From assembly GCA_964590195.1 (NCBI GenBank), contig CAZPWJ010000001.1, forward strand, positions 89,686-153,685: a stretch of 64,000 bases of DNA, written 5' to 3'. Both the position numbers and the translations under genes were made by a program. The notes under the pieces were generated by a model, which was given only the letters and a program-made list of their open reading frames with translations, did no database searches and was not told where the DNA came from. This DNA comes from an uncultured Rhodospirillaceae bacterium (GTDB lineage Bacteria > Pseudomonadota > Alphaproteobacteria > GCA-2731375). This document shows positions 13,659 to 59,893 of the stretch, piece by piece; position 1 is the first letter of the stretch, and the number at the start of each line of letters is the position of its first letter.

Positions 13659-13663
13659 TTGCC

Positions 13664-41350: not shown

Positions 41351-41440
41351 TATAATACTGCCCTAGAGCAATTCCGATCTAATGTGAACCGCCCGATCGC
41401 CTTGGGCGATTCACATTAGATCGGAAAAATTGCTCTATTT
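41351..41440 (+). promoter_or_regulatory. TATAAT hexamer (41351-41356) followed by a long hairpin (arms about 25 nt, 41364-41388 / 41410-41437) and a TTTT tract; candidate small-RNA unit or tRNA-Thr leader/terminator element
   Basis: Left arm TAGAGCAATTCCGATCTAATGTGAA; right arm TTCACATTAGATCGGAAAAATTGCTCTA (one 3-nt bulge); inner loop holds its own TCGCC/GGCGA hairpin; followed by TTTTAAG. Confidence 0.35.
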
Positions 41441-41477: not shown

Positions 41478-41553
41478 GCCGCCTTAGCTCAGTTGGTAGA
41501 GCATCGCATTCGTAATGCGGAGGTCGGGTGTTCGAGTCACCCAGGCGGCACCA
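41478..41553 (+). tRNA. tRNA-Thr (anticodon CGT), CCA encoded
   Basis: Cloverleaf by hand: acceptor GCCGCCT/AGGCGGC, D-arm GCTC-AGTTGGTA-GAGC, anticodon stem TCGCA/TGCGG with loop TTCGTAA (anticodon CGU), T-arm GGGTG-TTCGAGT-CACCC, 3' ACCA. Confidence 0.9.
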
Positions 41554-41613: not shown

Positions 41614-42558
41614 ATGATCGATCTGTTGCAGGTTTCCCAATTGCCGCCTTTTCTGGTGGAGCGCCTGGAAAAGGAATTCACCCTGCATGACTTTGTCGAT
41701 CCGGCCGATCCCGACAAGCTGCTGGACGAAATCGGACCGCGCATTCGCGGCATTTTGGCGGGCGGCATGAAAGGTCCAAACGCCAATCTGATCAACCGGC
41801 TGGAAAACCTGGAGATCATCTCGTCGTTCAGCGTCGGTTACGACGCCACGGACGTGGCGGCGGCCCAGGCCCGCGGCGTGATCGTTACCCATACGCCGGA
41901 GGTGCTGACCGGCGACGTCGCCGATCTGGCCATGACCTTCATCCTGATGGCGCCGCGCCGCATTGGCGAGGCGGAACGTTATCTGCGCAGCGGCAAATGG
42001 CTGGGCGGGCGCATGGACCTGGGCACCACGGTGCGGGGCAAGCGGCTGGGCATTCTCGGTCTGGGCCGTATCGGCAAGGCGGTGGCGCGCCGGGCCGAGG
42101 TTTTCGGCCTGCACATCGCCTATCACGACATTAAGCCCATGGGCGATCTGGTCTATCGTTCCTATCCAAGCCTGCTAGACCTGGCCGATGCCTCCGACAT
42201 ACTTCTGGTCGCCTGTGAAGGCGGCGAGGCCAACCGCGGGCTGGTCGATGCGGCGGCGCTGAAGGCCCTGGGGCCGGACGGTTTCCTGATCAACGCCGCC
42301 CGGGGGCCAATTATTGATCAGCCAGCCTTGATCGCGGCGTTGCGCGACGGTGGCATCGCCGGTGCGGCAATGGATGTTTTCGATAGCGAACCGGAGGTGC
42401 CGGCGGAACTGATGGCCATGGAAAACGTGGTTTTGACGCCGCATATCGCCAGCTCAACCCACGAAACCCGCCGCGCCATGGCCGATCTGGTCTATGACAA
42501 CATCCGCGCGCATTTCGACGGCAAGCCGGTCCTCACGCCCGTGCCGCCGCAGATTTAG
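41614..42558 (+). CDS. D-isomer-specific 2-hydroxyacid dehydrogenase (glyoxylate/hydroxypyruvate reductase GhrA-like)
   Basis: NAD-binding GILGLGRIGKAVARRA; catalytic R/E/H context (…TPHIASSTHETR…). Confidence 0.85.
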   Translation: MIDLLQVSQLPPFLVERLEKEFTLHDFVDPADPDKLLDEIGPRIRGILAGGMKGPNANLINRLENLEIISSFSVGYDATDVAAAQARGVIVTHTPEVLTGDVADLAMTFILMAPRRIGEAERYLRSGKWLGGRMDLGTTVRGKRLGILGLGRIGKAVARRAEVFGLHIAYHDIKPMGDLVYRSYPSLLDLADASDILLVACEGGEANRGLVDAAALKALGPDGFLINAARGPIIDQPALIAALRDGGIAGAAMDVFDSEPEVPAELMAMENVVLTPHIASSTHETRRAMADLVYDNIRAHFDGKPVLTPVPPQI

Positions 42559-42560: not shown

Positions 42561-43256
42561 TTAGCTCAAGAGATCAAAGCGGGTGTTGTGCAGCACAAGG
42601 TTCCGCGTCACCCGGTAGTTTCCCGACAGGTGCTTGCGCAAATAGCGCACCGTGTCATGGCGGCCATCGACAACCATGGTAAATCCGGGTTCGAAACGAT
42701 CCTCTAAATACATAGCGTCAAAACAGATCTTCCGCTTCGGCTGCAAGGCCGGGCCGTCCACATAGAGAAAGTCCGGCCTGCCTTCGGGCAATTCCTCGTA
42801 GCGGTAGCCCAGGTCCAAATTCGGGCGCTGACCCCGGTCCTCTTCCATCGCCGGCACGTAACGAACCCCGCAATAGGGTGCGAGGTGCGCGGGTAGGGAT
42901 TCGCGGGTGACGTCGGCCCATTCCGCCAGGCCGTCAACGCTGATAATCCGTCCGGCTTTTTCCGGGTCGTCCTGAGCGTTGTCATGCAGGGCCTGGGCAA
43001 AGATCACCGTGGAGCAGCCACTGCCCAACTCTATCACCAGGCGCGGCTTGAGTTGCCGTATCAGGCGATAGAGGAACCACAGATCGCCGCCCTGGGGCGC
43101 CAATGCGCCTGCCGGGCGCGCTTCAACGAAATCGAGATAGCCCAGGCGGCGCAAACGCCAGCCGCCATGGATATTGGCCATGGTGCGGGCCAGGCCCAGC
43201 AAGGGCCGGGCCACCATCCAGGCAAGTTTGCGCCAAAGGGGGGGCGAAGAGCTCAA
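42561..43256 (-). CDS. Class I SAM-dependent O-methyltransferase, Methyltransf_24 (TylF/CmcI-like) family; paralog of 51357..52016
   Basis: SAM-binding PRLVIELGSGCSTVIFAQAL; acidic DFLYVDGPAL motif; about 40% identity to the second copy over the full length. Confidence 0.65.
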   Translation of the reverse strand: MSSSPPLWRKLAWMVARPLLGLARTMANIHGGWRLRRLGYLDFVEARPAGALAPQGGDLWFLYRLIRQLKPRLVIELGSGCSTVIFAQALHDNAQDDPEKAGRIISVDGLAEWADVTRESLPAHLAPYCGVRYVPAMEEDRGQRPNLDLGYRYEELPEGRPDFLYVDGPALQPKRKICFDAMYLEDRFEPGFTMVVDGRHDTVRYLRKHLSGNYRVTRNLVLHNTRFDLLS

Positions 43257-43409
43257 AAGATCAGATCACTTGTGTTGTAGTGCGGGCGTTGGTACGTGAG
43301 TTCGGGGAGCATTATCATTGGCCGTCCGCTCTGTCTATCATGGCGCTGATGGTCTTAGCGGATTATGGTGCGGCCAAACGGAAACCCACGAACAGGAATT
43401 TATTTCAGC

Positions 43410-44351
43410 GTGTCCAAACCCACAATTATCTACGTCGGCGCTCCCGAAGGTTTCGAAGCACTGGCCGAAACCGCAACTGCCGCGGACTGCATCCATGTTG
43501 AAGCCGAACACGATGCCCTGACGGCGGCGCTGAAGGATGCCCATGGCCTGCTGGACGCCTCCATGAAGGTGCGCATCGATGATGCCATGGTCGCCGCCGC
43601 GCCCAATCTACAGGTCATATCCTGTGCCACCACGGGTTCAGACCATATCGCGCGCGGCGAGGTCGGCAGCCGGGGCATCAACGTCCATACCCTGCGCGAG
43701 GACGGCGATCTATTGCAGGGCATCACACCGGCGGCAGAATTGAGCTGGGCTCTGGTCCTGGCCTGTGCCCGCCGCCTGCCCGCCGCCGCCGGCCATACCA
43801 AATCCGGGCAGTGGGTGCGGGAGGAATTTCCCGGCACCATGTTGAATGGCCGCACCCTGGGCCTGGTCGGCTGCGGCCGCCTGGGGCAATGGATGTCCCG
43901 CTACGGTGCGGCGTTCGGCATGCGCGTGCTGGGTCACGACCCCTATATGGAGCCATGGCCCGACGGTATCGAGAAAATGGAACTGGCCGAGATGATGGCC
44001 CAGTCGGACGTTGTTTCCGTGCACGTGCATCTGAGCGAGGAAACCACCGGCCTGCTGTCGCCCGAATTGCTGGCGGGCATCAAGCCCGGCGCCATTGTCA
44101 TCAATACCTCGCGCGGCGCCATCATCGACGAGGCGGCCTTGCTGGCCGGTCTGGAAAGCGGCCGTATCGGCGCCGCCGGGCTGGACGTGCTGGATGGCGA
44201 GCCGGAGATCGACCAGCACCCTCTGATCGTTTATTCCCGTAATCATGACAATCTGATCGTGACGCCGCATATCGGCGGCTTCAGTCCGGATGCGGTGCGC
44301 GTGGTCTGCCGCCGGGCGGCGGAAAAGATCATGGCGAAGCTGGGGTTATAG
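43410..44351 (+). CDS. D-isomer-specific 2-hydroxyacid dehydrogenase (phosphoglycerate-dehydrogenase-like), first gene of a four-gene operon
   Basis: NAD-binding GLVGCGRLGQWMSR; catalytic …NTSRG…, …VTPHIGG…. The start is either GTG 43410 (AGGAA 12 nt upstream) or ATG 43365. Confidence 0.8.
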   Translation: MSKPTIIYVGAPEGFEALAETATAADCIHVEAEHDALTAALKDAHGLLDASMKVRIDDAMVAAAPNLQVISCATTGSDHIARGEVGSRGINVHTLREDGDLLQGITPAAELSWALVLACARRLPAAAGHTKSGQWVREEFPGTMLNGRTLGLVGCGRLGQWMSRYGAAFGMRVLGHDPYMEPWPDGIEKMELAEMMAQSDVVSVHVHLSEETTGLLSPELLAGIKPGAIVINTSRGAIIDEAALLAGLESGRIGAAGLDVLDGEPEIDQHPLIVYSRNHDNLIVTPHIGGFSPDAVRVVCRRAAEKIMAKLGL

Positions 44352-44354
44352 ACC

Positions 44355-45890
44355 ATGCCAATCCAAGCCTTGGCCACATCTGCCGCCAAGAACGGCCCCG
44401 GCCACGCCTTTGGGGTGCCTGGATCGGGGCAGAGCCTGGACCTTATCCATGCCCTGGAAGGTAATGGCGTTGCCTTTCATTCCGTGCACCACGAAGGTGC
44501 CGCCGCGATCATGGCCGGTACCGTTGGGCGTCTGACGGGAAAAGCCGGCATGGCCATCGCCATCAAGGGGCCGGGCCTGGCCAACATGGTTGGCGGCATG
44601 GCGGCCTGCACCTACGAGAACCTGCCCATGTTGGCCGTGACCGAGGCTTACGGCCTGAACGTGCCCCTGGCCAAGGCGCACAAGCGGCTGGACCAAGGGG
44701 CGCTGACCGCTGCCGTATCGAAAGGCCGGCGCTATCTGGCCACGAATGGTCCCGGCTATGACGAACTGGCTGGCTGGGCTGGGCAAGAGGCTCCTGGCCC
44801 GGTGTTCCTGGAACTGGCGGGAGCCATCGACCTGGCCGACGCCGTACCCAAAGCCGGGGCCTTGCCCGATCAGGGCGATGTTCCGGGTCTGATCGAACAG
44901 GCGGAACGGCCCATCGTCATTGCCGGCACTCTGGCGTTGCGACTTGGTCTGTCGCCGGATCTGAACCGTTTGCAAATTCCGGTGTTCTCCACTGCCGCCG
45001 CCAAGGGCGCGGTGCATGAAGCTCTGCCCCACGCCGCCGGTGTCTACACCGGCGTCGGCCAGGAACTGTCGCCCGAAGCCGACCTGATCCAACGCGCGGA
45101 CTTGATCGTCGGCATCGGCCTGCGGCCCGGCGAGGTACTGGGCGCCGGGCCATTCCCGTGCGATGCGGTCAATCTTGATCCTATTGATGCGCCGGGCCAT
45201 GACGGCTTTGCCTTTGCCGGTGTCCTGCGGGATTCTGCACCCGCCTTGGAACGTTTGGCGCAAAAGGCCTGGGGGGTGGAAGAATGCGCGCGCGCCGTGG
45301 GCAAGTTGCGCCAGCATTTGCTGCGACCGGGCGACTTCCTGCCCGCCCATGCCTTTGCCGCCATTGCCCAGGCCTTTCCCGACGGCGTCCGCATGGTCAT
45401 CGACACCGGTTATTTCTGCACCGTCGGCGAACATATCTGGCAGGCCCCGAAAGGGAACTGGTGTCTGTCCTCGGGCTCGGGCCGCTATATGGGCATGGGC
45501 CTGCCGCAAGCCATCGCCGCCGCCGTACATGACCCATCGGTGCCGACTATCTTGGCGGTGGGCGACGGCGGCATTGCGCCGTTCCTGGCCGAGGCCCGCC
45601 TGGCCCGCCGTTTGAACCTGCCGCTGGCGGTCTTGCAGATGTCCGATGGCGGCTATGGCTCGGTCCGCACCCGGGCCATTGCCGACGGCCTGACCCAGGC
45701 GCCCATGCTGGAACCGGGCGCGTCATGGCGAGGCGCCTTCGACGGTATGGGGTTTGCCGGCGCCGAGGCAGGCAGCGCCGATGCCCTGGCGGCGGCTTTG
45801 ACGGATTGGCGGCCAAACGACGGCCCGATGTTTGCTCTGCTGCCCATGGAGAGTGAGCCCTATCAAGACATGATCCGAGGCGTCCGATGA
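44355..45890 (+). CDS. Thiamine-pyrophosphate-dependent enzyme (acetolactate-synthase-like / ketoacid decarboxylase superfamily)
   Basis: Three-domain ALS-like architecture; TPP/Mg-binding GDG motif in LAVGDGGIAPF…; 3-nt gap to the upstream gene and 4-nt overlap with the downstream gene. Confidence 0.8.
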   Translation: MPIQALATSAAKNGPGHAFGVPGSGQSLDLIHALEGNGVAFHSVHHEGAAAIMAGTVGRLTGKAGMAIAIKGPGLANMVGGMAACTYENLPMLAVTEAYGLNVPLAKAHKRLDQGALTAAVSKGRRYLATNGPGYDELAGWAGQEAPGPVFLELAGAIDLADAVPKAGALPDQGDVPGLIEQAERPIVIAGTLALRLGLSPDLNRLQIPVFSTAAAKGAVHEALPHAAGVYTGVGQELSPEADLIQRADLIVGIGLRPGEVLGAGPFPCDAVNLDPIDAPGHDGFAFAGVLRDSAPALERLAQKAWGVEECARAVGKLRQHLLRPGDFLPAHAFAAIAQAFPDGVRMVIDTGYFCTVGEHIWQAPKGNWCLSSGSGRYMGMGLPQAIAAAVHDPSVPTILAVGDGGIAPFLAEARLARRLNLPLAVLQMSDGGYGSVRTRAIADGLTQAPMLEPGASWRGAFDGMGFAGAEAGSADALAAALTDWRPNDGPMFALLPMESEPYQDMIRGVR

Positions 45891-46903
45891 GCAGTTCTTC
45901 TTCCGTGCCACACATATTGATCGTCGGTGCCGGCAGTGTCGGCCTGCGCCATGGCCGTAATCTTTCTGAACTGGGTTGCCGCGTCTCGGGCATGGACCCG
46001 CGCCAGGACCGGCGCGAGGCTTTCGCCGACGAATTTAGCTGCTTTGCCTATGAGGATCTGGAAACGGCCCTGGCGGCAGGCGGCCTGGATGGCGTCGCGG
46101 TTTGTTCGCCCACCCGCTTTCATGTGGAACAATGCCTGCCCGCGTTGGAAGCCGGCCTGCCGGTGCTGTTGGAAAAGCCCGTGTCCAAAACCCTGGCCGA
46201 GGCCGAGATCCTGGCCCAGGCCATCGAACGTACCGGCACGCCGCTGCTGCTGGGCTATACTTGGCGCTGGTGGCCGCCCCTGGCCAAGGTCCGCGCGTTA
46301 TTGGCGGAGAATGCCATCGGCGCCATTCGTTACGTGGATTTCACCATGTCGGCGCATCTGGCGGACTGGCATCCGGGCGAGCCGCTGGAGGAATTCTTCA
46401 TGTCGTCCGCCGAACTGGGCGGCGGTGCCCTGCTGGACGAAAGCCACTGGGTCGATCTGATGCTGTGGTTCTTTGGCATGCCGGAAAGCCTCTCGGCGCG
46501 GGTGGAGAAGATCTCCGATCTGGACATCACCTCGGACGACAACGTGGACATGATGATCAATTTCGCCGACGGCCTTCGCGCCAACCTGCATCTGGATCTA
46601 TATGGCCGGCCGCACCGCAAATCGATCCGCTTCATTGGCGAGGGCGGGACTATTCTATGGTCGGAAGCTCCAAACCAGATCGCGGTCTGTGTGGAGGCCG
46701 GCGAGAACTGGAACGAGGAACGCTTTGACTGCGAACGCAATGATATGTTCATGGGCGTGGCCAGGGAATATCTGGCGGTTCTGGCCGGCGCGCCCGTCGA
46801 CACCTGTGCCATTGCTGACGGCCTTGGCGTGATGACCTTATTGGAGGCGGCCCGGCAAAGTCATGCCGAGGGCCGCCGCATCGAGCCGGGATCGTCAGCA
46901 TGA
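45887..46903 (+). CDS. Gfo/Idh/MocA-family NAD(P)-dependent oxidoreductase
   Basis: N-terminal ILIVGAGSVGLRH Rossmann motif; EKP motif in LLEKPVSKTL. Confidence 0.85.
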   Translation: MSSSSSVPHILIVGAGSVGLRHGRNLSELGCRVSGMDPRQDRREAFADEFSCFAYEDLETALAAGGLDGVAVCSPTRFHVEQCLPALEAGLPVLLEKPVSKTLAEAEILAQAIERTGTPLLLGYTWRWWPPLAKVRALLAENAIGAIRYVDFTMSAHLADWHPGEPLEEFFMSSAELGGGALLDESHWVDLMLWFFGMPESLSARVEKISDLDITSDDNVDMMINFADGLRANLHLDLYGRPHRKSIRFIGEGGTILWSEAPNQIAVCVEAGENWNEERFDCERNDMFMGVAREYLAVLAGAPVDTCAIADGLGVMTLLEAARQSHAEGRRIEPGSSA

Positions 46904-47619
46904 GCATAGCGGGACAAACGGTTTTGGCCGTGGTGCCGGCGCGGGGCGGTTCTAAATCCATACCGCGCAAGAATCTGGCCAAGGTGGGCGGCATCTCTCT
47001 GGTGGGCCGGGCCGGCGAACTGGCCGCCTCCATGCCCTGGATCGACCGGGCGATCATCTCCACGGACGATGTTGAAATCGCGGCGGAAGCCACGCGCCAT
47101 GGGTTGGAGGCGCCGTTTCAGCGGCCCGAGGAGCTTGCCGCCGACAAATCCACCTCCACCGATATGTGGCGCCACGCCTGGCTGGCGGCGGAGGAACATT
47201 ACGGCATGCGCTTTGATCTTTCCATTTTGTTGGAGCCGACCTCGCCCATGCGCCGGGCCGAGGATCTGACCCGCTGTGTCGAAACTCTGCTGGACAGCGG
47301 CCACAAGGCGGCGGCGACCCTCAGCCCGACACCGGCCCATTTCACGCCGCATAAAACCCTGAAGCTGGATGATAGCGGCAACCTCGCGCCCTATCTGGCT
47401 GAGGGACGCAAGGCCCTGCGTCAAGGCATTCCCGACTATTATCATTGCAACGGCATCTGCTATGCCCTGCGCCGCGCCACCCTGGTGGACGAGGGCCACA
47501 TCATGGAAGACGACTGCATCGGCGTCGTCATCGACCGGCCCATCGTCAATATCGACGAGCCGTTCGAGCTGGAATTGGCGGAATGGCTGCTGGCGCGGGA
47601 AGCCGCCACGCGTTCGTAG
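46900..47619 (+). CDS. Acylneuraminate-type cytidylyltransferase (CTP_transf_3 family: CMP-NeuAc/CMP-Kdo/CMP-nonulosonate synthetase-like)
   Basis: N-terminal AVVPARGGSKSIPRKNL signature of NeuA/KdsB-type CMP-sugar synthetases; about 239 aa; last gene of the overlapping operon. Confidence 0.85.
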   Translation: MSIAGQTVLAVVPARGGSKSIPRKNLAKVGGISLVGRAGELAASMPWIDRAIISTDDVEIAAEATRHGLEAPFQRPEELAADKSTSTDMWRHAWLAAEEHYGMRFDLSILLEPTSPMRRAEDLTRCVETLLDSGHKAAATLSPTPAHFTPHKTLKLDDSGNLAPYLAEGRKALRQGIPDYYHCNGICYALRRATLVDEGHIMEDDCIGVVIDRPIVNIDEPFELELAEWLLAREAATRS

Positions 47620-47769
47620 CGGACAATAAGCAATACCCCACGCAAGAATCTCCACACCATGACCGACCCTGCGATCGTCAGAGCAGTTGGATGTTCCGAA
47701 TAGTGGTGGTGCGGGCCACCAGGCCGGCGCCGCCGAAGGCAGGGCGGGCCGGCCATTGTCGGGCCTCGG

Positions 47770-49353
47770 TTACTGTGCGCCGGACGGCCGCATCATCTTT
47801 TCCATCACTTTCTCGAGGCTGAAACTTGCCGGCTTTTGACGCGGCGGGAATTCCTTGAAAGTTTTCAGGAAATTACCCACATAGACCTGCGCTGGAACCA
47901 GGAGGTAAACCCGGTCAACCAGCCAGTCGTAGTAGGTGTTCGAGGTGGAATAAGCCCGTTCATAGGGATCGCGGCGCAGGTTGAATATCAACGGCACCCG
48001 AAGCGGCGTCCATGGCTCGACCCACGCGCGGAAGGTGGCTTCTGCCTTTTGCTCCATGAATATGGCCTTCCAATCACCGTACCGCAAAGCCGTGAGGTCA
48101 CCGTCGTCGGAGAAATAGAATATCTCCTTGCGCGGACCTTCCTTGGTTTCTCCTTTCAGATAGGGCAGGAAGTTGTAGCCATCGAGATGGACTTTGTAGC
48201 TACGCCCAATTGCCTCCACGCCGCCTTTCTTGAGCTTTTCCTTGATATTGGAATCTCCGGCGGCGGCCAGATAGGTTGGCAACCAGTCCATGTGGTGCAT
48301 GATTTCGTTCGACACCTGGCCGGACTTGATCCTGCCAGGCCAGCGCACCATGGACGGCACCCGCCAGCCGCCTTCCCAATTGGTGTTCTTCTCACCACGG
48401 AAGGGTGTCATCCCGGCATCCGGCCAGGTGTTCATATGGACGCCGTTGTCGGTCGAATAATGCACGATTGTGTTGTCGGCAATGCCAAGCTCGTCCAATT
48501 TGGCGAGCAGCTTGCCCACATGCATGTCATGTTCGACCATGCCATCGGCGTATTCGTCCTGGCCCGAGATGCCCCGTAGTTCCTTTTTCACGTGGGTGCG
48601 GAAATGCATCCGCGTGCCATTCCACCAGACATAGAAGGGTTTGCCGGCCTTGTGCGCCCGTTCGATAAAGCCCAGTGCAGCCTCTAGGGTTTCATCGTCC
48701 ACGGTCTCCATGCGTTTCTTGGTCAGGGCACCCGTATCCTCAACCGCACCGCCCGCCGATGACTTAATGACGCCGCGTGGGCCGAAACGTTTCCGGAAGG
48801 CGGGGTTCTTGGGATAATCCTCGTTCTCCGGCTCTTCCTCGGCGTTCAGGTGGTAAAGGTTGCCAAAGAACTCGTCGAAGCCATGATTGCTCGGCAACAT
48901 CTCGTCCCGGTCACCAAGATGGTTCTTTCCGAACTGGCCGGTGACATAGCCCTGCGCTTTAAGCAGGCCGGCAATGGTCGGGTCTTCCTTTTTCATGCCT
49001 TCCTTGGCGCCCGGCAGGCCGACTTTGGAAAGACCGGTGCGGAATACGCTCTGGCCCATGATGTAGGAGGAGCGGCCGGCGGTGCAGGATTGTTCGCCAT
49101 AATAATCAGTGAACATCATGCCCTCTTTTGCGATGCGGTCGATGTTTGGTGTCTTGTAGCCAACCAAGCCCATTGTGTAAGCGCTGATATTGGTCAAACC
49201 GATATCGTCGCCCCAGATCACCAGAATATTGGGCTTTTTATTCTGCGCCTGTGCTGACGCCCCCACGCCAATAATTCCAAGACTTACGACGCTTGCCATT
49301 GTCCAAGACAACAGTGTTGCGAATTTCCATTTATATTGACCCTGCCACGGCAT
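47770..49353 (-). CDS. Arylsulfatase (type I sulfatase, formylglycine-dependent)
   Basis: Signal peptide; GDDIG metal-binding start; formylglycine motif variant C-T-A-G-R (SCTAGRSSYIMG); sulfatase N-terminal domain throughout. Confidence 0.85.
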   Translation of the reverse strand: MPWQGQYKWKFATLLSWTMASVVSLGIIGVGASAQAQNKKPNILVIWGDDIGLTNISAYTMGLVGYKTPNIDRIAKEGMMFTDYYGEQSCTAGRSSYIMGQSVFRTGLSKVGLPGAKEGMKKEDPTIAGLLKAQGYVTGQFGKNHLGDRDEMLPSNHGFDEFFGNLYHLNAEEEPENEDYPKNPAFRKRFGPRGVIKSSAGGAVEDTGALTKKRMETVDDETLEAALGFIERAHKAGKPFYVWWNGTRMHFRTHVKKELRGISGQDEYADGMVEHDMHVGKLLAKLDELGIADNTIVHYSTDNGVHMNTWPDAGMTPFRGEKNTNWEGGWRVPSMVRWPGRIKSGQVSNEIMHHMDWLPTYLAAAGDSNIKEKLKKGGVEAIGRSYKVHLDGYNFLPYLKGETKEGPRKEIFYFSDDGDLTALRYGDWKAIFMEQKAEATFRAWVEPWTPLRVPLIFNLRRDPYERAYSTSNTYYDWLVDRVYLLVPAQVYVGNFLKTFKEFPPRQKPASFSLEKVMEKMMRPSGAQ

Positions 49354-49517
49354 TAGGCTCTCCCATCGAGCTGATTTGCAATTAAGACTGAATCGTAGAT
49401 AGAGTTTTCGCTACAGTTGTCCAGCCCAGTTGCAATGACCAAAAAATCTGCGATGTCGGCAGTTATTAGGGGCTATCAAATATTAGGGGCTATCAAAAAT
49501 CGGCTGCCGCGGCATTG

Positions 49518-49625
49518 GGCCCGACAGCGGCGCATTTTGCGCCGCACAAATCCCTGAAGCTGGACGATGCCGGCAATCGCGCACCCTATTTGGCAGAATG
49601 GCTATTGGCGGGCGAAGCCGTGCTC
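49518..49625 (+). pseudogene. Decayed remnant of a paralogous cytidylyltransferase gene (internal deletion; about 80% nt identity to 47323-47405 and 47580-47615)
   Basis: …PTAAHFAPHKSLKLDDAGNRAPYLAE|WLLAGEA… aligns to …PTPAHFTPHKTLKLDDSGNLAPYLAEG… and the C-terminal …AEWLLAREAATRS of the intact gene. No start, no N-terminal domain. Preceded by an 18-bp tandem repeat (49464-49500). Confidence 0.7.
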
Positions 49626-49632
49626 CAAGGCC

Positions 49633-50703
49633 TCAGGGCGGCAGGAATCGGCCGGAGGAGAAAAAGCCGTCGATTACCGGCTTCGGACTGCGCCGGGACA
49701 TCTCGGCACGGGATTTTATGGGCGATTGCAGGAACATGTTGGCGGGATAAATCTCGTCGCTGTAGAGGCCGTCGAACATCTCGGAGCGGATCTGCGCCAG
49801 GAAGTTTCGCCGCGGTTCCTGCCGCCGCGCCCGCAAAGCCTTCAGATTGATTTCCGAGGCCACGACGGTCTCGCCAGGGTACGGCGCCCGACCCATGATG
49901 ACGCCTTTATAATCAACGATCATGCTGTCGCCCGGCGTGAAGTCGGCGGGAAGTTCATCCGTGATCAGGCCGCCGGTGTTCGGCGCGATGACATAGGCGA
50001 TGTTTTCATGCGCCCGGACCCGGTTCTGTATCTCCCAGGTATTCATCAGCGGCGAGACCAGCGGCTCGGGATAGGCCGTCGGACGCAGAAGTATCTCAGC
50101 CCCCTGAAAGGTCAGGGCCCGTGTGACTTCGGGAAAATGGCCGTCCATGCAAATGAAGGTACCCAGCCGGCCGACCTTGGTCTCGGTGACCGGAAAGAAG
50201 GTCTCCAGCTTGCTCTTGCCCTTGCCATACAGCTCCATATAGCGGTCCATCATGTCGTGGGGGCTCATGGCCATTTCCGCATGAATGGCCGGAATGGCCT
50301 TGCGGTATTTATGGACGATTTCACCGCTCGGGCTGATGACGAAGGCGCAATTGAAATAGTATTCGGGCAATTCCGGATCATATTCCAGGGCGCAGCCGGA
50401 GATGTAGACATCAAGCTCCCGCGCTTTTTGCGCCAGCGCGTCGCTTTCCTTGCCGGGCAGGGTGATCAGGATTTCCCGGCGGCAATAATCCATGTCCACG
50501 TCGTGCCGGGTGGTGAAGCCTTGGAGAAAGAATTCCGGAAACGCGAACAATTTCAGCGGCGCGGCCACCTCGCCGAAACGGCGCATGCAGCCATCCATGA
50601 TGCCCAGATATTTTTCCAGGTTTTCGGCGATGTCTTCGCGCTTGTAGGCCCATTTGAGAATTGGCTGGAAAATGCACGCCGTGTACGTCTCATAATAACT
50701 CAT
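49633..50703 (-). CDS. Carbon-nitrogen hydrolase family amidase (aliphatic amidase/formamidase-like)
   Basis: Nitrilase-superfamily E-K-C triad context: FPEFF (Glu), EIVHKYRKAIP (Lys), FICMDGHFPE (Cys). Confidence 0.8.
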   Translation of the reverse strand: MSYYETYTACIFQPILKWAYKREDIAENLEKYLGIMDGCMRRFGEVAAPLKLFAFPEFFLQGFTTRHDVDMDYCRREILITLPGKESDALAQKARELDVYISGCALEYDPELPEYYFNCAFVISPSGEIVHKYRKAIPAIHAEMAMSPHDMMDRYMELYGKGKSKLETFFPVTETKVGRLGTFICMDGHFPEVTRALTFQGAEILLRPTAYPEPLVSPLMNTWEIQNRVRAHENIAYVIAPNTGGLITDELPADFTPGDSMIVDYKGVIMGRAPYPGETVVASEINLKALRARRQEPRRNFLAQIRSEMFDGLYSDEIYPANMFLQSPIKSRAEMSRRSPKPVIDGFFSSGRFLPP

Positions 50704-50800
50704 CGGACCACATCCAATAGTTCAACTGCCCGTCAAGCATATCGCGCCTGGACGAGATTTATCAAACCGGATTTGCCTGACGAATCAACTGCCGATGGGG

Positions 50801-51199
50801 CTACTTGCGCACAGCCGACCATTTACCGTCGCAGTAAGTCCGCGACGTTTCCTTCCAGGTGCCATTTCCGCCAGCCTTGAACAGCTTGCCGGTTATCATT
50901 CCTTCCACGCTATTGCCGGCACCCTTTGCGGTGAAGGCGCCATCCGCCGTGACCTCTCCCGACAAATACACCGGTCCCCTCTCACTGTGGTTCAGGATGC
51001 CGGTAACCTTGCCAGCCTTGACCACCAAAGGATCCGGAAACAGATAACCGGCACAATGGGGACTGCTCGAAGAACGCTTGGAGTACTCAATCGTAACCTT
51101 CCATTCGCCACTCAATGAGGATTGTGCGGCGGCTTGCCAAACAGGCGCCATGAAAATCATCATCAGCGCCGTCATCGTGGTTATCGTGCTAATTTTCAT
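50801..51199 (-). CDS. Small secreted protein of unknown function (signal peptide, 2 Cys)
   Basis: MKISTITTMTALMMIFMAPVWQAAAQS signal peptide; about 110-aa mature G/K/T-rich domain; no recognisable motif. Confidence 0.55.
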   Translation of the reverse strand: MKISTITTMTALMMIFMAPVWQAAAQSSLSGEWKVTIEYSKRSSSSPHCAGYLFPDPLVVKAGKVTGILNHSERGPVYLSGEVTADGAFTAKGAGNSVEGMITGKLFKAGGNGTWKETSRTYCDGKWSAVRK

Positions 51200-51231
51200 G
51201 CGGCAATCTTCCAATTTGCAGCCAAAATGAT

Positions 51232-51273
51232 CTTTCGATTCGTGACCCATATGGTCTCATCGAATCGAAACAA
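51232..51273. promoter_or_regulatory. Operator-like palindrome TTTCGATTCG-N18-CGAATCGAAA (inner GACCCATATGGTC near-palindrome) about 35-75 bp upstream of the secreted-protein gene start
   Basis: Perfect 10-bp inverted half-sites read directly; located in an AT-rich intergenic stretch. Confidence 0.35.
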
Positions 51274-51356
51274 TGACTTAATCGGAAATAGTTTTTACCC
51301 AGCGTTTGTCCAGGCACCGAGTTCGGCGAAACCGCAATAGCAGCCGGAAAAATGGC

Positions 51357-52016
51357 TCAGTCCGGCAGCAGGTCGTAGGTCGTACTTTTTAGAATGGGAC
51401 GATGTTTCCTTTGGTAGCGGCGCTTGAAGTACTTTTCCAGCAAGCTGCGGTTAAAGCTGCGTCCGTCCACCAGCAGGCGAAAGCCCGGCGGGAAATCCGC
51501 TTCCATATCCAGGACATCGATGGCGGCGCGGCGTTCCGGCGTCAGGGCCGGGCCGTCCAGATAGATCATGTCGGCCACCACGTCCGGCACGTTGGCAAAG
51601 CGCCATACCGGGGTGCCGTCAAGATCGTCCTCCACCCGCTCGGTCAGCGTCACCGTGCAAAACAGGCGCAGATGCTCGGGCATGCTGTCAATTGTTACCT
51701 GGCCCCAATGGGCGTCGGCATCCAGGGAATGCAGGAAACCAGGTGCGCCCTCGGCCGCATTGTCGGCCAGGGCCTGAGCGAAAATGATCGTCGAGCAGCC
51801 GCTGCCGAATTCCAATAGCACCTTTGGCCGGCGCGCCCGAACCTGGCTGTAGATAGCCCACAGGTCCGACCAGACCGGCGGCTTGGCCGTCGGCGGGCGA
51901 GCATCGAACAGCGCAAGGTAGCCGCGCTTTTTCAGTTGCCGCCAGCCACGGAAATTCAGGATGGCCACACCGATCTTGCGATAAATGATAGCGAGTTTTT
52001 GCTTGATCCAAGACAT
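51357..52016 (-). CDS. Class I SAM-dependent O-methyltransferase, Methyltransf_24 family; paralog of 42561..43256
   Basis: PKVLLEFGSGCSTIIFAQAL; DMIYLDGPAL. Start set at ATG 52014-52016 (MSWIKQKLAII…) by alignment with the paralog. The 144-codon upstream extension of the ORF is rejected. Confidence 0.65.
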   Translation of the reverse strand: MSWIKQKLAIIYRKIGVAILNFRGWRQLKKRGYLALFDARPPTAKPPVWSDLWAIYSQVRARRPKVLLEFGSGCSTIIFAQALADNAAEGAPGFLHSLDADAHWGQVTIDSMPEHLRLFCTVTLTERVEDDLDGTPVWRFANVPDVVADMIYLDGPALTPERRAAIDVLDMEADFPPGFRLLVDGRSFNRSLLEKYFKRRYQRKHRPILKSTTYDLLPD

Positions 52017-52067
52017 GGCACTATATAGTCCGAAACTCTCCTCCGGTGCATCAAGAAGATATCGCCC

Positions 52068-52907
52068 ATGGACAATACCATACCAATTTTTATCGGCGGC
52101 CTGATGCGCTCGGGCACCACGCTGCTGCGTGCCATGCTGGCGCAGCATTCGGCCATCGCCTCGGGCCTGGAAACCCATTGGTTCGACATCGACTGGCCGG
52201 CCCAACAGGCCAGGGGCGGGGAGCCGTTGCGGGACTATCTGCACCGCATAGGTGAATTCTTCGCTGTTGGCGGCGAAGCGGTCGATACCCAGATGGCGGC
52301 GGCGGATAGCGCGGCGGCCTTTCTGGATCTGTTCATGGGCGCCGTCACAATGGCGGCGGGCAAGCGGCGCTGGGCCGAAAAGACCACCGGCAATATCCGC
52401 CACCTGGATGCCATCCTGGCCCACTGGCCCCAGGCAATGATCATTCATGTGCTGCGCGACCCCCGGGACATCTTCGCCTCGTTCCGGCGCAGTAAGAAAT
52501 ACGGCGGCATTGATGACTTTGCCAACCTATGGTGCGACTACCTGGGCGATGTGGAGCGTTTCAAGGGCGCGCTGCCGCTCAACGACGGCAATTATCTTGA
52601 ACTGCGCTATGAGGCTCTGGTCCGCGACCCCATTGGTCAGATGCAGGCGGTGATCAGCTTTCTGGGCGAGGACTGGGAAGACGCCGTGGGCCGCTTCGAC
52701 GGCAAGGCGGACGAGCATGACCGGGTCCTCGGCCTGACCGGGCATTCCTCAACCACCCTGGAGCAGATCGCGCATCCGCTAAGCCAGAACCGTGTCGGTC
52801 TGGGACAGGACAGTATCAGCGACGAGGAAATGGCCATCGCCCGCACGGTGGCGGCGGAACGCGGCCTGGGCGAGCTGTTCGCCCGGATCGAGCGGGAGGC
52901 GCGCTAA
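52068..52907 (+). CDS. Sulfotransferase-family protein (PAPS-dependent)
   Basis: 5'-PSB motif RSGTTLL near the N-terminus; 3'-PB motif RDPRD; about 279 aa. Confidence 0.8.
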   Translation: MDNTIPIFIGGLMRSGTTLLRAMLAQHSAIASGLETHWFDIDWPAQQARGGEPLRDYLHRIGEFFAVGGEAVDTQMAAADSAAAFLDLFMGAVTMAAGKRRWAEKTTGNIRHLDAILAHWPQAMIIHVLRDPRDIFASFRRSKKYGGIDDFANLWCDYLGDVERFKGALPLNDGNYLELRYEALVRDPIGQMQAVISFLGEDWEDAVGRFDGKADEHDRVLGLTGHSSTTLEQIAHPLSQNRVGLGQDSISDEEMAIARTVAAERGLGELFARIEREAR

Positions 52908-52917: not shown

Positions 52918-53961
52918 CTAGCCGTCCGGCGAAACCACCACTTTCATGCACTCGCGCCGTTCCAGAAGCGTGAAGGCCCGGTCAATCTCGGCAAAGGGCA
53001 GAACATGGGTCACCAGCTGGCGCAACTCGCCCGCCAGCGCGCCGGCCAGGGTTGTGCTGCGGACCCAGGTACCCCGGTTATAGGCGCGGCAGCCGATCAG
53101 CTCTTTTTCATCCAGGGCCAGGGGCAGGGAATGGAAAGGTGCCGCGGCATGACAGTAGCCGACGATGCCCAGCCGCCCGCCACGGCGCAGGGCCGGCAGG
53201 GCCGCGGCAAGGGCATCGTGATGGCCGCTGGCATCGTAGGCGACATCGGCGCCCCTTGGTGCTACGCGGCGAACGGCGGCAGCAAGATCTTCGCTGTCCT
53301 GATCCACCGTGACGGCGCCAAGCTTTCGGGCCAGGGCCAGGCGGGAGGCATCGGCGGCGACGCCGGCGACGATCACTTCCGATGCGCCGGCGGCGCGGGC
53401 GACCAACAGATGCAGCAGACCCACCGGCCCCGCGCCCATGACCAGTGCCACATCACCGGCGCCCATGGGCACCCGTTCGAGGACGGCATGACTAGCAACG
53501 GTCAACGGCTCTATCACCGCGGCCACGAGAGGATCGGTGCCGTCGGGCAGGACGAATGCATTGTCGGCAGGTACGGCAATCCGTTCCGCCAGGCCGCCGG
53601 GGGCGTGGCAGCCCATGATGCTGCGCTGGGTGCACAGCGCGTGGCGGCCGCTGTTGCAATAGAAGCAGCGGCCGCAATTGAGGTGCGGCGTAACGGCGGC
53701 CAGGGCACCGACGGCGATGCCTTCCACACCAGGGCCCACAGCTTCGATGCGGCCGGCGAATTCGTGGCCCAGGACATGGGGAAAGGCCGGCGCATATTCC
53801 GCCGCGATATCGTCATCCCAGCGCCGGATCGCCAGATCGGTGCCGCACAGGCCGCCGCCATTGACCCGAAGCAGCACCTGGCCCGCAGCCAGCGTCGGCT
53901 CCGCCACCTCGATCTCCGTGATATGGCCCGGAGCCGGCTCTGTTTTAGCTATTGCGCGCAT
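52918..53961 (-). CDS. Zinc-dependent alcohol dehydrogenase family (sorbitol/threonine dehydrogenase-like MDR)
   Basis: GHEFAGRIEAVG catalytic-zinc motif; structural-zinc CGRCFYCNSG; NAD-binding LVMGAGPVGLL. Start at MRAIAKTEP. Confidence 0.85.
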   Translation of the reverse strand: MRAIAKTEPAPGHITEIEVAEPTLAAGQVLLRVNGGGLCGTDLAIRRWDDDIAAEYAPAFPHVLGHEFAGRIEAVGPGVEGIAVGALAAVTPHLNCGRCFYCNSGRHALCTQRSIMGCHAPGGLAERIAVPADNAFVLPDGTDPLVAAVIEPLTVASHAVLERVPMGAGDVALVMGAGPVGLLHLLVARAAGASEVIVAGVAADASRLALARKLGAVTVDQDSEDLAAAVRRVAPRGADVAYDASGHHDALAAALPALRRGGRLGIVGYCHAAAPFHSLPLALDEKELIGCRAYNRGTWVRSTTLAGALAGELRQLVTHVLPFAEIDRAFTLLERRECMKVVVSPDG

Positions 53962-54043
53962 GCCGGCCAGCTTGCACGACGAAGGCGTATCAGGCAACCT
54001 GGATGCCAGGACGCGCCTTGGCGGACCGCCAATCAGCAGGAGT

Positions 54044-54868
54044 ATGACCGTGATCGACATGAACGGCTTTGCCGTCAACACCTACGCCTATACCTTTTCC
54101 CACAGTGCTGGCGACTGCATCGAGACCTACGCCGGCACCGGCGCCCAGGGGCTCGAGGTCATGATGTATCCGGGCCATGCCTGGCCTGACGACCTGGACC
54201 AGGGCGCCCGCCGCGCCCTGGCGAAACAAAGCCGCGATGCCGGCTTGCCCATTATCAGCCTGAACATGCCGAACATAGACATCAACATCGCCGCCGCGAC
54301 GCCGGACATGCGTGCCTACAGTATTGATACCCTGTGCCGCATCCTTGCCCTGGCGGGCGATCTGGAGGTGCCGGGCGTGGTGATCGGTCCCGGCAAACAA
54401 AATCCCCTGATGCCGGCGCCCAGAGATGTTCTGCTCGGCCATTTTCACAAGGCCATGGAAACCCTGGTGCCCGCCGCCCGTGCCGCCGGCACAAGATTGC
54501 TGGCGGAGAACATGCCCTTTGCCTTCCTGCCCGGCGCCGAAGAGATGATGGCGGCGCTGGAGCCATACGCCGTCGAGGATGTGGGCGTGGTTTACGATAT
54601 CGCCAACGGCCATTTTTGTGGCGAGGATCTGGCGATAGGCTTTCGCGCCGTGGCGCCGCGCCTGGCCCTGGTGCATGTTTCGGACACACCGACCGACGTC
54701 TACCTGCATGCGGCGGTGGGGCAAGGTTCGGTGCCGTTTGCCCATGGCGCCAAGGCCTGCCGGGCGGCAGGCTATGACGGCCCGACCATGCTGGAAATCA
54801 TCTGCGACGATCCCGACCGGGAGATCCCGGCCTCCGCCGAAGCCTTGTCGGAAATGGGCTGGCGCTAG
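54044..54868 (+). CDS. Sugar-phosphate isomerase/epimerase (xylose-isomerase-like TIM barrel) family protein
   Basis: AP-endonuclease-2/xylose-isomerase TIM-barrel pattern (…NMPNIDINIA…, …HVSD…). Start at ATG 54044 (MTVIDMNG). Confidence 0.7.
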   Translation: MTVIDMNGFAVNTYAYTFSHSAGDCIETYAGTGAQGLEVMMYPGHAWPDDLDQGARRALAKQSRDAGLPIISLNMPNIDINIAAATPDMRAYSIDTLCRILALAGDLEVPGVVIGPGKQNPLMPAPRDVLLGHFHKAMETLVPAARAAGTRLLAENMPFAFLPGAEEMMAALEPYAVEDVGVVYDIANGHFCGEDLAIGFRAVAPRLALVHVSDTPTDVYLHAAVGQGSVPFAHGAKACRAAGYDGPTMLEIICDDPDREIPASAEALSEMGWR

Positions 54869-54897
54869 GAATTAACTTGCGAAGGGAAGCTAGAACC

Positions 54898-55533
54898 ATG
54901 ATTTACGAACTGCGCACCTACACCATGAAACCCGGTACGGCGGCCCAGGCGGCGGCCCATTCAGCCACCGTGGGCCGGGATGTCCGCGGCGACGAATACG
55001 GCAGGCTGGAAGGTTATTGGATGACCGAGATCGGGCCGTTGAACCAGGTCATGCATCTGTGGAGCTATGCCGACCTCAACGAACGGGCCCGCCTGCGTGC
55101 CGCGCTATCGACCAACGAACGCTGGAACAAGGAATACCTGCCGGCGATGCGGCCCAACCTGCTGCGCCAGGATATTCGCCTGTTGAACTGTGTTATCGGC
55201 CCGAACGCGCCCGAGAGCGAGGGCAATCTGTACGAATTCAGAAACTATCGCCTGCGCCCCGGCGCCATGAAGGAATGGCTGGGCCTGTTCATGGATGCCC
55301 TGCCCGCGCGGGAGAAATATTCCCGCATCGTCGGTCTGTGGTCGACCGAGGCCGGACAGCCCAACGAGGTCTGCCATATCTGGTCCTATCCAAGTTTCGA
55401 GGCCCGCCTGGAGGTCCGGGGCAAGGTGGCGGAAGATCCGGCCTGGCAGGCTTTTCTGCCCAAGGCGGGTGGGCTGATCGAGGAAATGCATTCCACCCTG
55501 ATGTTGCCCGCGCAGCATTCGAAATTGCAATAA
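54898..55533 (+). CDS. NIPSNAP-family protein (two tandem NIPSNAP/dimeric alpha+beta-barrel domains)
   Basis: MIYELRTYTMKPG… and a second repeat …LYEFRNYRLRPGAMKEW…. Confidence 0.75.
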   Translation: MIYELRTYTMKPGTAAQAAAHSATVGRDVRGDEYGRLEGYWMTEIGPLNQVMHLWSYADLNERARLRAALSTNERWNKEYLPAMRPNLLRQDIRLLNCVIGPNAPESEGNLYEFRNYRLRPGAMKEWLGLFMDALPAREKYSRIVGLWSTEAGQPNEVCHIWSYPSFEARLEVRGKVAEDPAWQAFLPKAGGLIEEMHSTLMLPAQHSKLQ

Positions 55534-55616
55534 CGAAAGTCAGTTTATCTTAAGCCTTGACGGTGGGCCATCCGTGGTACCATCGGGCAATTATTTTCAA
55601 AGGAAAGAACAGCAAC

Positions 55617-56321: not shown

Positions 56322-56344
56322 AGCATTTTCAGTACGGGCTAAAC

Positions 56345-56414: not shown

Positions 56415-56430
56415 TGGCAACAGACAGCCG

Positions 56431-58089: not shown

Positions 58090-58112
58090 GGGCGGTTCCT
58101 TTCGGTTCTTTT

Positions 58113-59884: not shown

Positions 59885-59893
59885 TCGCGAAGG

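Follow-up and report, generated by a model that had tools for sequence, protein, structure and literature searches.

In this study, we examined a block of genes at positions 42561–52907 of a 64 kb stretch of DNA from an uncultured alphaproteobacterium, which we refer to as the window and in whose positions all coordinates are given. A list of open reading frames (ORFs), a tRNA scan and profile searches against Pfam and NCBIfam were applied to the window, with the Pfam gathering score (GA) as the family cut-off, and the genes were compared with those of around 100 loci carrying related genes (numbered below with the prefix L). A preliminary description had taken the block for a glycan-modification island. 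The ORFs that it listed are all present. Metagenome contigs from several samples are 100 % identical over 47000–52100, and the gene calls made independently on them agree with the window ORFs. The preliminary observation of the genes is confirmed, and its interpretation is upheld in part. The Sulfotransfer_3, Sulfatase, CN_hydrolase and CTP_transf_3 assignments score above the Pfam threshold, as do all other assignments in the block save those of two methyltransferase-like (MT-like) proteins.

At the heart of the block is a unit of seven genes in a conserved order. The gene for MT-like 1, a protein with a predicted S-adenosylmethionine (SAM) O-methyltransferase fold, lies on the minus strand (42561–43256) and is divergent from a plus-strand operon of four genes, which encode a D-isomer 2-hydroxyacid dehydrogenase (HacidDH, 43365–44351), an acetolactate-synthase-like thiamine pyrophosphate (TPP) enzyme (44355–45890), an NAD(P) oxidoreductase of the Gfo/Idh/MocA family (45887–46903) and a putative NeuA-like CMP-nonulosonate synthetase, a cytidylyltransferase (46900–47619). 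The paralogue MT-like 2 (minus strand, 51357–52016) is in turn divergent, across a gap of 51 bp, from the plus-strand gene of a 3'-phosphoadenosine 5'-phosphosulfate (PAPS)-type sulfotransferase (52068–52907). The remaining three of the ten genes in the block, encoding a sulfatase, an amidase and a protein of 149 aa, are located between the operon and MT-like 2 and fall outside the unit.

When species-representative genomes were scanned with the TPP enzyme, 16 orthologues with 68–96 % identity were obtained, the next matches being less than 30 % identical. All 16 hosts are uncultured marine alphaproteobacteria known as metagenome-assembled genomes (MAGs), labelled Rhodospirillaceae or Alphaproteobacteria, and come from Saanich Inlet, from oxygen-minimum zones in the tropical Pacific and Arabian Sea, and from deep water. 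The core unit was defined by mapping the window proteins onto these 16 species-level loci, and not every gene is found in every locus. In two of them (L015 and L019) the MT-like 2 and sulfotransferase genes come immediately after the cytidylyltransferase gene, and in four others (L007, L008, L010 and L022) only the amidase gene lies between the cytidylyltransferase and MT-like 2 genes. The synteny comparison accordingly divided what the preliminary description had grouped together: the cytidylyltransferase operon, both MT-like genes and the sulfotransferase gene are conserved with one another, whereas the sulfatase, the small secreted protein and the amidase are not part of this unit. Synonymous divergence (dS) in the core genes is saturated, and the ratio of non-synonymous to synonymous divergence (dN/dS), determined pairwise against eight relatives, is low, at 0.04–0.25 across the core genes and 0.03–0.25 when the amidase is included. 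This range indicates strong purifying selection and thus that the reduced locus is functional and not decaying.

The four operon genes are translationally coupled, with start and stop codons overlapping within the operon. HacidDH has a 2-Hacid_dh_C domain (173 bits), its best relatives in the PDB are D-3-phosphoglycerate dehydrogenases (158 bits), and by type it resembles phosphoglycerate dehydrogenases and glyoxylate reductases (dN/dS 0.04–0.23). The TPP enzyme contains the three Pfam domains TPP_enzyme_N, TPP_enzyme_M and TPP_enzyme_C, all above threshold, and the catalytic Glu47 and the GDG motif are invariant in the family alignment. Its nearest PDB structure, a catabolic acetolactate synthase, scores only 107 bits, and no equivalog match to a characterized acetolactate synthase, IolD or YerE-type enzyme was obtained, the best NCBIfam score being 137 bits against a cut-off of 509; by its sequence the protein can be placed at the level of the acetolactate synthase superfamily only. 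The Gfo/Idh/MocA oxidoreductase, whose gene overlaps its neighbours at both ends, has a GFO_IDH_MocA domain (71 bits) together with C-terminal domains. It reaches 100 bits with the NCBIfam model for IolG, under the cut-off of 355, and the IolD model was not among the best 25 of the 46 NCBIfam matches; with scores so far under the cut-offs, membership of an inositol catabolic pathway (IolG/IolD) was rejected.

The last gene of the operon had been described as encoding a cytidylyltransferase of the NeuA/KdsB type, and of these two names the first fits better. The protein has a CTP_transf_3 domain (48.7 bits; GA 22.6), its nearest solved relatives are CMP-N-acetylneuraminic acid (CMP-Neu5Ac) synthetases (81–87 bits), and the NeuA protein of Neisseria meningitidis aligns over its full length. 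The motifs ARGGSK..KN, EPTSP.R, RQ..P, NG..Y and N-I-D are kept in 66 loci, with an Asn throughout the family where the first Asp of a DxD pair is expected. Among the NCBIfam models PseF is best at 113 bits, below its cut-off of 205.7, and KdsB reaches at most 37 bits. We regard the protein, on family-level evidence, as a putative NeuA-like CMP-nonulosonate synthetase, and the operon not as a generic CMP-sugar operon but as a specific module of three enzymes, referred to below as the trio, joined to a NeuA-like enzyme.

The two MT-like proteins had been described as a pair of O-methyltransferase paralogues of the Methyltransf_24 type. Their paralogy is clear (40 % identity, E-value 2e-48); however, with 25.5 bits for MT-like 1 and 19.3 bits for MT-like 2, both score below the GA of 26.3 for this family, and no NCBIfam model matches either of them. 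Existing annotation of the family reads only 'hypothetical', an exhaustive profile search collected 291 cluster representatives at E-values of 1e-30 or less, and a profile search of the PDB gave marginal matches only (E-values 0.04–0.7). An AlphaFold model of MT-like 2, built with an alignment of 40 homologues, has a pLDDT of 95.9. The top Foldseek matches of this confident model are cation-dependent catechol-type and related O-methyltransferases with bound SAM or S-adenosylhomocysteine, at a probability of 1.0, with TM scores of only 0.5–0.6 and identities of 12–16 %. Invariant in the family are motif I 'LEFGSGCST' (E-x-G-x-G-x-S), 'YLDGP' and 'VDGR'. The predicted fold and cofactor site support the view that the MT-like proteins are class I SAM O-methyltransferases. 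Orthologues of MT-like 1 lie directly upstream of the operon in ten clade loci (dN/dS 0.05–0.20), and on the identical contigs the gene calls for MT-like 1 begin at 43217, giving a protein of 218 aa.

The PAPS-type sulfotransferase was recognized correctly from its sequence: it scores 134 bits with Sulfotransfer_3 (GA 27), and its translation contains both the 5'-phosphosulfate-binding (5'-PSB) motif 'MRSGTTLL' and the 3'-phosphate-binding (3'-PB) motif 'LRDPRD'. Its relatives in the PDB are the CurM sulfotransferase domain, with which it aligns across the PAPS-binding regions, and tyrosylprotein sulfotransferases (32–35 bits). Orthologues with 66–89 % identity are present in seven clade loci (dN/dS 0.10–0.25), and the MT-like 2/sulfotransferase pair is likewise found in seven. 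A locus of the L012 type (L176, 13459–19315) has at the position of this pair a Methyltransf_11 gene on the minus strand and a Sulfotransfer_1-like gene on the plus strand, neither orthologous to the genes in the window, followed by AsnB, a glycosyltransferase of family 4 (GT4) and Wzy_C. In L012 and L176 the methyl- and sulfotransferase functions are kept beside the NeuA-like gene while the gene families have been exchanged.

The context of the operon in more distant relatives carries our interpretation. Metagenomes contain more than 100 homologues of the TPP enzyme at 46 % identity or more, and 80 loci were obtained when metagenomes were scanned with a TPP family alignment; the counts given here refer to 77 distant loci with less than 66 % TPP identity to the window enzyme (74 of these 80, together with L091–L093), with a denominator that differs per feature. 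A cassette of six genes in the order NeuB-NeuC-HacidDH-TPP-GFO-NeuA, where GFO is the Gfo/Idh/MocA oxidoreductase, is present in L019, the most distant member of the clade, and outside the clade in L088, L089, L091, L092 and L093, three of the outside loci holding TPP homologues with 46–58 % identity. HacidDH lies directly upstream of the TPP gene in 54 of 56 distant loci, and downstream of it are Gfo/Idh/MocA (48/55) and NeuA-like (47/55) genes; NeuC is found within 8 kb of the TPP gene in 29 and NeuB in 26 of 35 loci. A methyltransferase gene lies directly upstream of HacidDH in 21 of 44, and other methyltransferase families recur too. A homologue of the sulfotransferase follows the NeuA-like gene in 12 of 42 loci, and is itself usually followed by Polysacc_deac_1, a NodB-type deacetylase gene that itself occurs in 15 of the 42. 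The NeuC proteins of the relatives pass NCBIfam TIGR03568 (373 bits, cut-off 236), and their NeuB proteins are nearest to NeuB_NnaB (TIGR03569, 271–286 bits).

Long arrays, in L088 and L089, begin with NeuB, UDP-GlcNAc 2-epimerase, in part a methyltransferase, 2-hydroxyacid dehydrogenase, TPP enzyme, Gfo/Idh/MocA and CTP_transf_3, and go on with Sulfotransfer_3, Polysacc_deac_1, methyltransferases, an MT-like gene and three proteins of 455–482 aa; the L089 array is extended further by genes for a methyltransferase, GT4, Wzy_C, a WecA-like transferase and a PglF-like dehydratase. An MT-like gene of L087 lies inside a NeuB-NeuC-NeuA cluster that also encodes an ATP-binding cassette (ABC) transporter with a Wzt_C domain. 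One protein of about 455 aa passes TIGR04396 ('surface carbohydrate biosynthesis protein') with 375 bits against a cut-off of 125 and is related to the BFO_1060 glycosyltransferase family of Tannerella-type transferases for nonulosonic acids (NulOs). The TIGR04396-type proteins are putative NulO transferases; such genes, in two to three paralogues, accompany the cassette in 22 of 42 distant loci. The embedding of the core genes with NeuB, NeuC and NeuA, together with the family assignments, identifies the block as part of a sialic-acid-type (NulO) surface-glycan system. That a CMP-activated acidic sugar is methylated and sulfated, as the preliminary description had proposed, is the best reading, given that in relatives the core genes stand among NeuB/NeuC, putative NulO transferase, glycosyltransferase, Wzy_C and WecA-like genes.

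Two variations were seen around the cassette. In L141 and L149 a membrane-bound O-acyltransferase (MBOAT) gene takes the place of the Gfo/Idh/MocA gene; in L149 (11503–13984) the MBOAT gene (115 bits) and one for a 323-aa protein without a family match lie between the TPP and NeuA-like genes. In many loci (L091, 4202–5364; L174, L175 and L178) genes for an HTH_24 regulator and a NusG-like protein of the RfaH/LoaP type precede M20-NeuB-NeuC, and the position of the NusG-like gene upstream of NeuB suggests antitermination control of a long glycan operon.

The preliminary description had expected the missing sugar-backbone genes elsewhere in the genome. In the 64 kb window there is no tblastn match to NeuB, no NeuC (hydrolysing UDP-GlcNAc 2-epimerase), no match to TIGR04396-like, GT4, Wzy_C or WecA-like genes, and neither PAPS-synthesis genes nor glycosyltransferases are present. 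Two relatives have NeuB and NeuC at a second locus. A 279 kb contig of one of them (ctg123368, TPP enzyme 81 % identical) has HTH-NusG-M20-NeuB-NeuC-M20 at 87–109 kb and dehydrogenase-TPP-oxidoreductase-NeuA-methyltransferase (Methyltransf_11)-sulfotransferase-like-AsnB-GT4-Wzy_C at 239–261 kb, and in the MAG JABIRL01, which holds L014, NeuB-NeuC and the operon are on separate contigs. From these relatives we infer that NeuB and NeuC are encoded elsewhere in the genome under study as well. We therefore propose, with a probability of about 70 %, that the block represents the 'late' half of a split sialic-acid-like surface-glycan gene cluster on the core chromosome of an uncultured marine alphaproteobacterium. 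A further 2-hydroxyacid dehydrogenase gene (HacidDH0, plus strand, 41614–42558), which lies outside the block between a tRNA gene and MT-like 1, encodes a protein 30 % identical to the operon dehydrogenase and 45–46 % identical to a dehydrogenase near NeuB-NeuC in relatives; at only 45–46 % identity no link to that dehydrogenase was established.

A pathway can be sketched for such a split cluster. As the relatives suggest, NeuC and NeuB, encoded elsewhere, would make a nine-carbon sugar of the Neu5Ac type from UDP-GlcNAc and phosphoenolpyruvate (PEP). In canonical clusters the gene between neuC and neuA is neuD, whose product modifies free sialic acid. Because the trio occupies this neuD position and is translationally coupled to the NeuA-like gene, it would be expected to act before CMP-activation, either on the free sugar or by supplying a substituent. 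In the first case, the Gfo/Idh/MocA enzyme could oxidize a hydroxyl to a ketone, the TPP enzyme could make or break an adjacent C–C bond and a reduction would follow; in the second, a 2-hydroxy acid would be converted to a 2-oxo acid, which the TPP enzyme could decarboxylate to form an acyl or alkyl donor for a non-acetyl substituent. The second option is hinted at by the MBOAT gene that replaces the oxidoreductase gene in L141 and L149 and by the methyltransferase gene often found directly upstream of HacidDH. We slightly prefer the first, and the data fit either. The NeuA-like enzyme, judging from its family, would then activate the product as a CMP-sugar, and the two methyltransferases with a predicted catechol O-methyltransferase-type fold and the PAPS sulfotransferase would, as family, fold and linkage suggest, decorate the sugar or the acceptor glycan. 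It is a tentative suggestion that the cassette represents an undescribed route to a C-branched, chain-extended or side-chain-truncated NulO, which the attached methyltransferases and the sulfotransferase, together with a deacetylase or amidase, would then O-methylate and N- or O-sulfate.

The genes between the operon and MT-like 2 have a different history from that of the core. The secreted arylsulfatase (minus strand, 47770–49353) has a Pfam Sulfatase domain (167 bits) and matches the arylsulfatase structure 7aj0 in the PDB (205 bits). The three features of an S1 formylglycine sulfatase, namely the domain, the C/S-x-P/A-x-R motif, here 'SCTAGRS' in its CxAxR variant, and an export signal in the form of an N-terminal signal-like peptide, were all found. 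The gene is absent from L007, L008, L010, L015, L019 and L022. Boundaries determined by blastn against L007, L008, L010 and L022 show that it lies, together with a neuA-like gene remnant, on a 2.0 kb lineage-specific insertion (47607–49624) that takes the place of 34 bp in the closest relative, L007. The GC content of the insertion is 0.556 and its GC content at third codon positions (GC3) 0.70, compared with a GC3 of 0.74–0.79 for its neighbours. The sulfatase with the neuA remnant is a recent insertion and accessory, and its assignment to the glycan unit does not survive the comparison, the insertion being missing from the closest relatives.

A gene remnant had been reported at 49518–49625; it is real and, by nucleotide similarity, slightly longer (plus strand, 49502–49625). 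Its first part, 49502–49597, has 78 % DNA identity to 47307–47402 inside the cytidylyltransferase gene, and it runs on to 49625 with the neuA C-terminal 'AEWLLA.EA', which indicates an internal deletion; in other words, residues ~137–168 of a divergent neuA-like gene are joined to its last ~9 codons. The 3' end of the remnant is collinear with the 3' end of the neuA-like gene of L010 beside the amidase gene. The remnant is 84 % identical to the L008 orthologue, and because it is 74–84 % identical to every orthologue compared, no donor of the sulfatase insert can be named. Exactly at its left edge (~49463–49500) lies a tandem 18-nt duplication (TTATTAGGGGCTATCAAA / TATTAGGGGCTATCAAAAA), which may have been left by recombination when the sulfatase segment was inserted.

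Sulfatase genes of another kind were observed at the corresponding junction of L013 (13495–14736), L014 (~13155–14432) and L016 (13968–15194). Here the NeuA-like gene has a different S1 sulfatase gene as its immediate downstream neighbour on its own strand, the product being 27 % identical to the window sulfatase, with a CVPSR motif and no signal peptide, and in L014 the order NeuA-sulfatase-MT2-SulfoT-deacetylase mirrors that of the window. Sulfatase genes have therefore entered this junction at least two times.

The amidase, a carbon–nitrogen hydrolase (minus strand, 49633–50703; CN_hydrolase, 115 bits), has dN/dS values of 0.03–0.05, and among the clade loci its orthologues are confined to L007, L008, L010 and L022. 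It is an older, subclade-specific insertion and not a recent one; its occurrence in one subclade only takes it out of the conserved unit in which it had been placed. Beside the MT-like 2/sulfotransferase pair, the amidase and Polysacc_deac_1 genes are mutually exclusive, with the deacetylase in three clade loci (L014, L015 and L019) and the amidase in four species plus L007. The amidase is possibly a functional replacement of the NodB-type deacetylase and may carry out the de-N-acylation that the deacetylase would perform in sister lineages; as the swap represents a single evolutionary event, the evidence from it is weak. A Polysacc_deac_1 gene at 33559–34662 was considered as the deacetylase of the cluster and rejected, since it shows no tblastn similarity to the cluster type; with the adjoining glucosaminidase-domain gene (together 33559–35894) it probably serves cell-wall or peptidoglycan remodelling.

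The 149-aa ORF (minus strand, 50801–51250) has no match in Pfam or NCBIfam. Its signal-peptide-like stretch, near the N terminus, follows an internal Met and ends in 'AAAQS'. The ORF was found in none of L007, L008, L010, L015, L019 and L022, the amidase gene abuts MT-like 2 in L008, L010 and L022, and the DNA alignment shows that the ORF is carried by a second insertion of ~0.6 kb (GC of the ORF 0.538, GC3 0.64). It is a recent, species-specific insertion that the closest relatives lack. The small secreted protein is accordingly, like the sulfatase, an accessory of this genome and not a component of the unit.

Several points weigh against the interpretation of the block as the late half of a NulO cluster. 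The product of the cassette, the part played by its trio and the methyl and sulfate acceptors are predictions from sequence and gene order. Both the NeuA-like enzyme and the NeuB proteins of the relatives score under the NCBIfam equivalog cut-offs, and the window contains no genes for NeuB, NeuC, NulO transferases, glycosyltransferases or PAPS synthesis. In two clade members (L009 and L021) HacidDH-TPP-GFO occurs without an adjacent NeuA-like gene, so that the trio is a separable module that can stand apart from NeuA. Lastly, non-orthologous sulfatases have come to lie at one and the same site, in the window as well as in L013, L014 and L016, and a functional link of the sulfatases to the locus, or a part in sulfate editing, is conceivable.

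Some of these points would also fit a model in which the trio and the cytidylyltransferase make a CMP-activated compound that is not a sugar, such as a glycerate-, lactate- or phosphonate-like head group, the connection with NulOs being only that of a shared polymer. The enzyme set mirrors the logic of fosfomycin-type phosphonate pathways, L009 and L021 have the trio without NeuA, and the MBOAT gene in place of the oxidoreductase gene in L141 and L149 hints that the HacidDH-TPP pair may supply an acyl donor. However, neither PEP mutase nor a kinase was seen in any locus examined, the cytidylyltransferase is NeuA-like by sequence and motifs, and the trio lies between NeuC and NeuA, that is at the neuD position of canonical clusters. 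We consider this model unlikely, and a phosphonate or sulfonate pathway in particular was rejected for the operon, as PEP mutase was not seen in the loci examined and the link to NeuB and NeuC is consistent.

It also appears improbable that the locus is catabolic and serves scavenging, with the sulfatase and amidase removing sulfate and acyl groups from sulfated glycans or sialic acids in the environment, the dehydrogenases and TPP enzyme degrading the products and the NeuA-like enzyme salvaging sialic acid. Points in its favour are the signal peptide of the sulfatase and its likeness to carbohydrate and aryl sulfatases, the further redox and TPP enzymes and TauD downstream, the absence of NeuB and NeuC from the window, and the combination of a Gfo/Idh/MocA enzyme with an acetolactate-synthase-like TPP enzyme, which recalls IolG/IolD (IolG 100 bits). 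Yet the nearest relatives lack the sulfatase, and the trio is almost always flanked by NeuB/NeuC and NeuA, which are biosynthetic, as are a PAPS sulfotransferase and methyltransferases; moreover, no homologue of a sialic-acid lyase, kinase, epimerase or transporter was found among the neighbours examined.

The block had further been described as a horizontally assembled island directly downstream of a tRNA gene. A tRNA-Thr(CGT) gene is indeed present (plus strand, 41478–41553, tRNA scan), but 'directly downstream' is loose, since it lies ~1 kb upstream of the block with the conserved HacidDH0 gene in between. The proximity of the tRNA, the gene remnant, the two clear insertions and a dip in GC to 0.56–0.57 over 48–52 kb would all agree with an acquired island of unrelated accessory genes. 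Against this, at least 16 species-level MAGs share the core in synteny, its dS being saturated and its dN/dS low, the tRNA-Thr and the dehydrogenase gene following it are conserved in L008 and L010, and the low GC is restricted mainly to the sulfatase and the 149-aa ORF. The tRNA 3' end is neither copied nor directly repeated elsewhere in the window, the flanking ORFs scanned include no member of an integrase or transposase family, and the 40 kb upstream hold housekeeping genes (purF, radA, mlaEF, dnaB, fabDGF, mltG, gmk, ksgA, pdxA and surA). The idea of an island at the tRNA is thus largely refuted and very unlikely to be correct. That the block is no more than a chance neighbourhood of unrelated housekeeping enzymes, as the commonness of each family alone and the scores of several below equivalog cut-offs might have suggested, is refuted by the synteny counts, with the same gene set and order in ~100 loci from many environments and lineages, and by the overlapping start and stop codons of the operon.

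Two features of the flanks were observed in addition. Between a major facilitator superfamily (MFS) transporter gene and the tRNA-Thr gene lies a 23-nt inverted repeat (41372–41426, 96 % complementary, 9-nt loop), which may be a terminator or operator. Directly downstream of the block, a redox cluster (52918–63404) that is partly conserved in L010 encodes a zinc-dependent alcohol dehydrogenase (Zn-ADH), an AP_endonuc_2 TIM barrel protein, NIPSNAP, a short-chain dehydrogenase/reductase (SDR), two further acetolactate-synthase-like TPP enzymes (552 and 550 aa), an NAD-epimerase, EthD, an EamA transporter and TauD.

Of known systems, the nearest is the canonical cluster with the order neuB-neuC-(neuD)-neuA, which is that of the capsule and lipooligosaccharide loci of Escherichia coli K1, N. 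meningitidis and group B Streptococcus. The relatives have their NeuB, NeuC and NeuA-like genes in the same order, but the position of neuD is taken by the trio, genes for a sulfotransferase and several methyltransferases are added, neither NeuB nor NeuA reaches its equivalog cut-off, and in the clade of the window NeuB and NeuC are at another locus. The window itself lacks three of the four genes that define a canonical NulO cluster in cis, and its NeuA-like protein is below the equivalog cut-off. Mechanistically, the trio has its template in YerE/YerF of yersiniose A synthesis, where a C–C bond is formed, and in IolG/IolD of inositol catabolism, where one is cleaved. In both pairs a TPP enzyme of the acetolactate synthase superfamily works beside a carbonyl that is made or reduced by an NAD(P) oxidoreductase; their substrates are, however, CDP-hexoses or cyclitols and not NulOs, and we claim no membership.

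As a precedent for linking a TPP enzyme to NulO glycans we found only the sfmABCDE operon of Shewanella oneidensis, whose biochemistry is also unsolved. It encodes a protein with a NeuB domain, an ilvB-like TPP enzyme, a reductase and a SAM methyltransferase, and its first four genes are all needed for a methylated appendage of 236–264 Da on the flagellin nonulosonic acid (PMC3765264). SfmB and the window TPP enzyme are likened here by description and not by sequence, and the Shewanella system differs in having an SDR reductase and an ATP-grasp protein, no NeuA or sulfotransferase, and a flagellar context. In L014, L015, L019, L088, L089 and many metagenomic loci, the next gene after that of the sulfotransferase encodes a NodB-type deacetylase, so that the cassette loci share the logic of deacetylase plus sulfotransferase with the N-deacetylase/N-sulfotransferases (NDSTs) of heparan sulfate and with rhizobial NodH/NoeE. 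Here, in contrast, the two are separate small proteins, NoeE scores 27.6 bits against a cut-off of 500, and the window has the amidase in place of a deacetylase. A methylated NulO in an alphaproteobacterial surface polysaccharide is exemplified by the 5-O-methyl-Kdn of the Sinorhizobium fredii K-antigen, as cited in a passage of PMC9000132; here the likeness is one of product.

In the full-text literature, with few subscription journals covered, we found neither a description of the cassette or of a three-enzyme TPP module in NulO biosynthesis nor a report of a sulfated bacterial NulO; matches from Fusobacterium and Leptospira proved irrelevant to the cassette. The core unit is part of what is apparently a widespread, conserved and uncharacterized variant of sialic-acid-type glycan biosynthesis with a thiamine-dependent module. 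The cassette is compact, consisting of six genes whose members are highly conserved, and is directly testable. The annotations 'acetolactate synthase', 'phosphoglycerate dehydrogenase' and 'inositol dehydrogenase' that the trio receives are probably wrong in hundreds of genomes. NulOs are the outermost charge-bearing sugars of many microbial surfaces and shape recognition by phages, grazers and hosts, and a cassette that places a thiamine-dependent C–C enzyme and two dehydrogenases between sialic-acid synthesis and CMP-activation, and that recurs together with sulfotransferase and methyltransferase genes, points to a sugar chemistry that we did not find described for bacteria. If the tentatively suggested route to a skeleton-modified, methylated and sulfated NulO is correct, NulO biosynthesis would gain its first TPP-dependent step and bacteria their first sulfated sialic-acid analogue, made by a pathway that would be widespread in environmental bacteria and encoded at a split locus in this clade of marine alphaproteobacteria.

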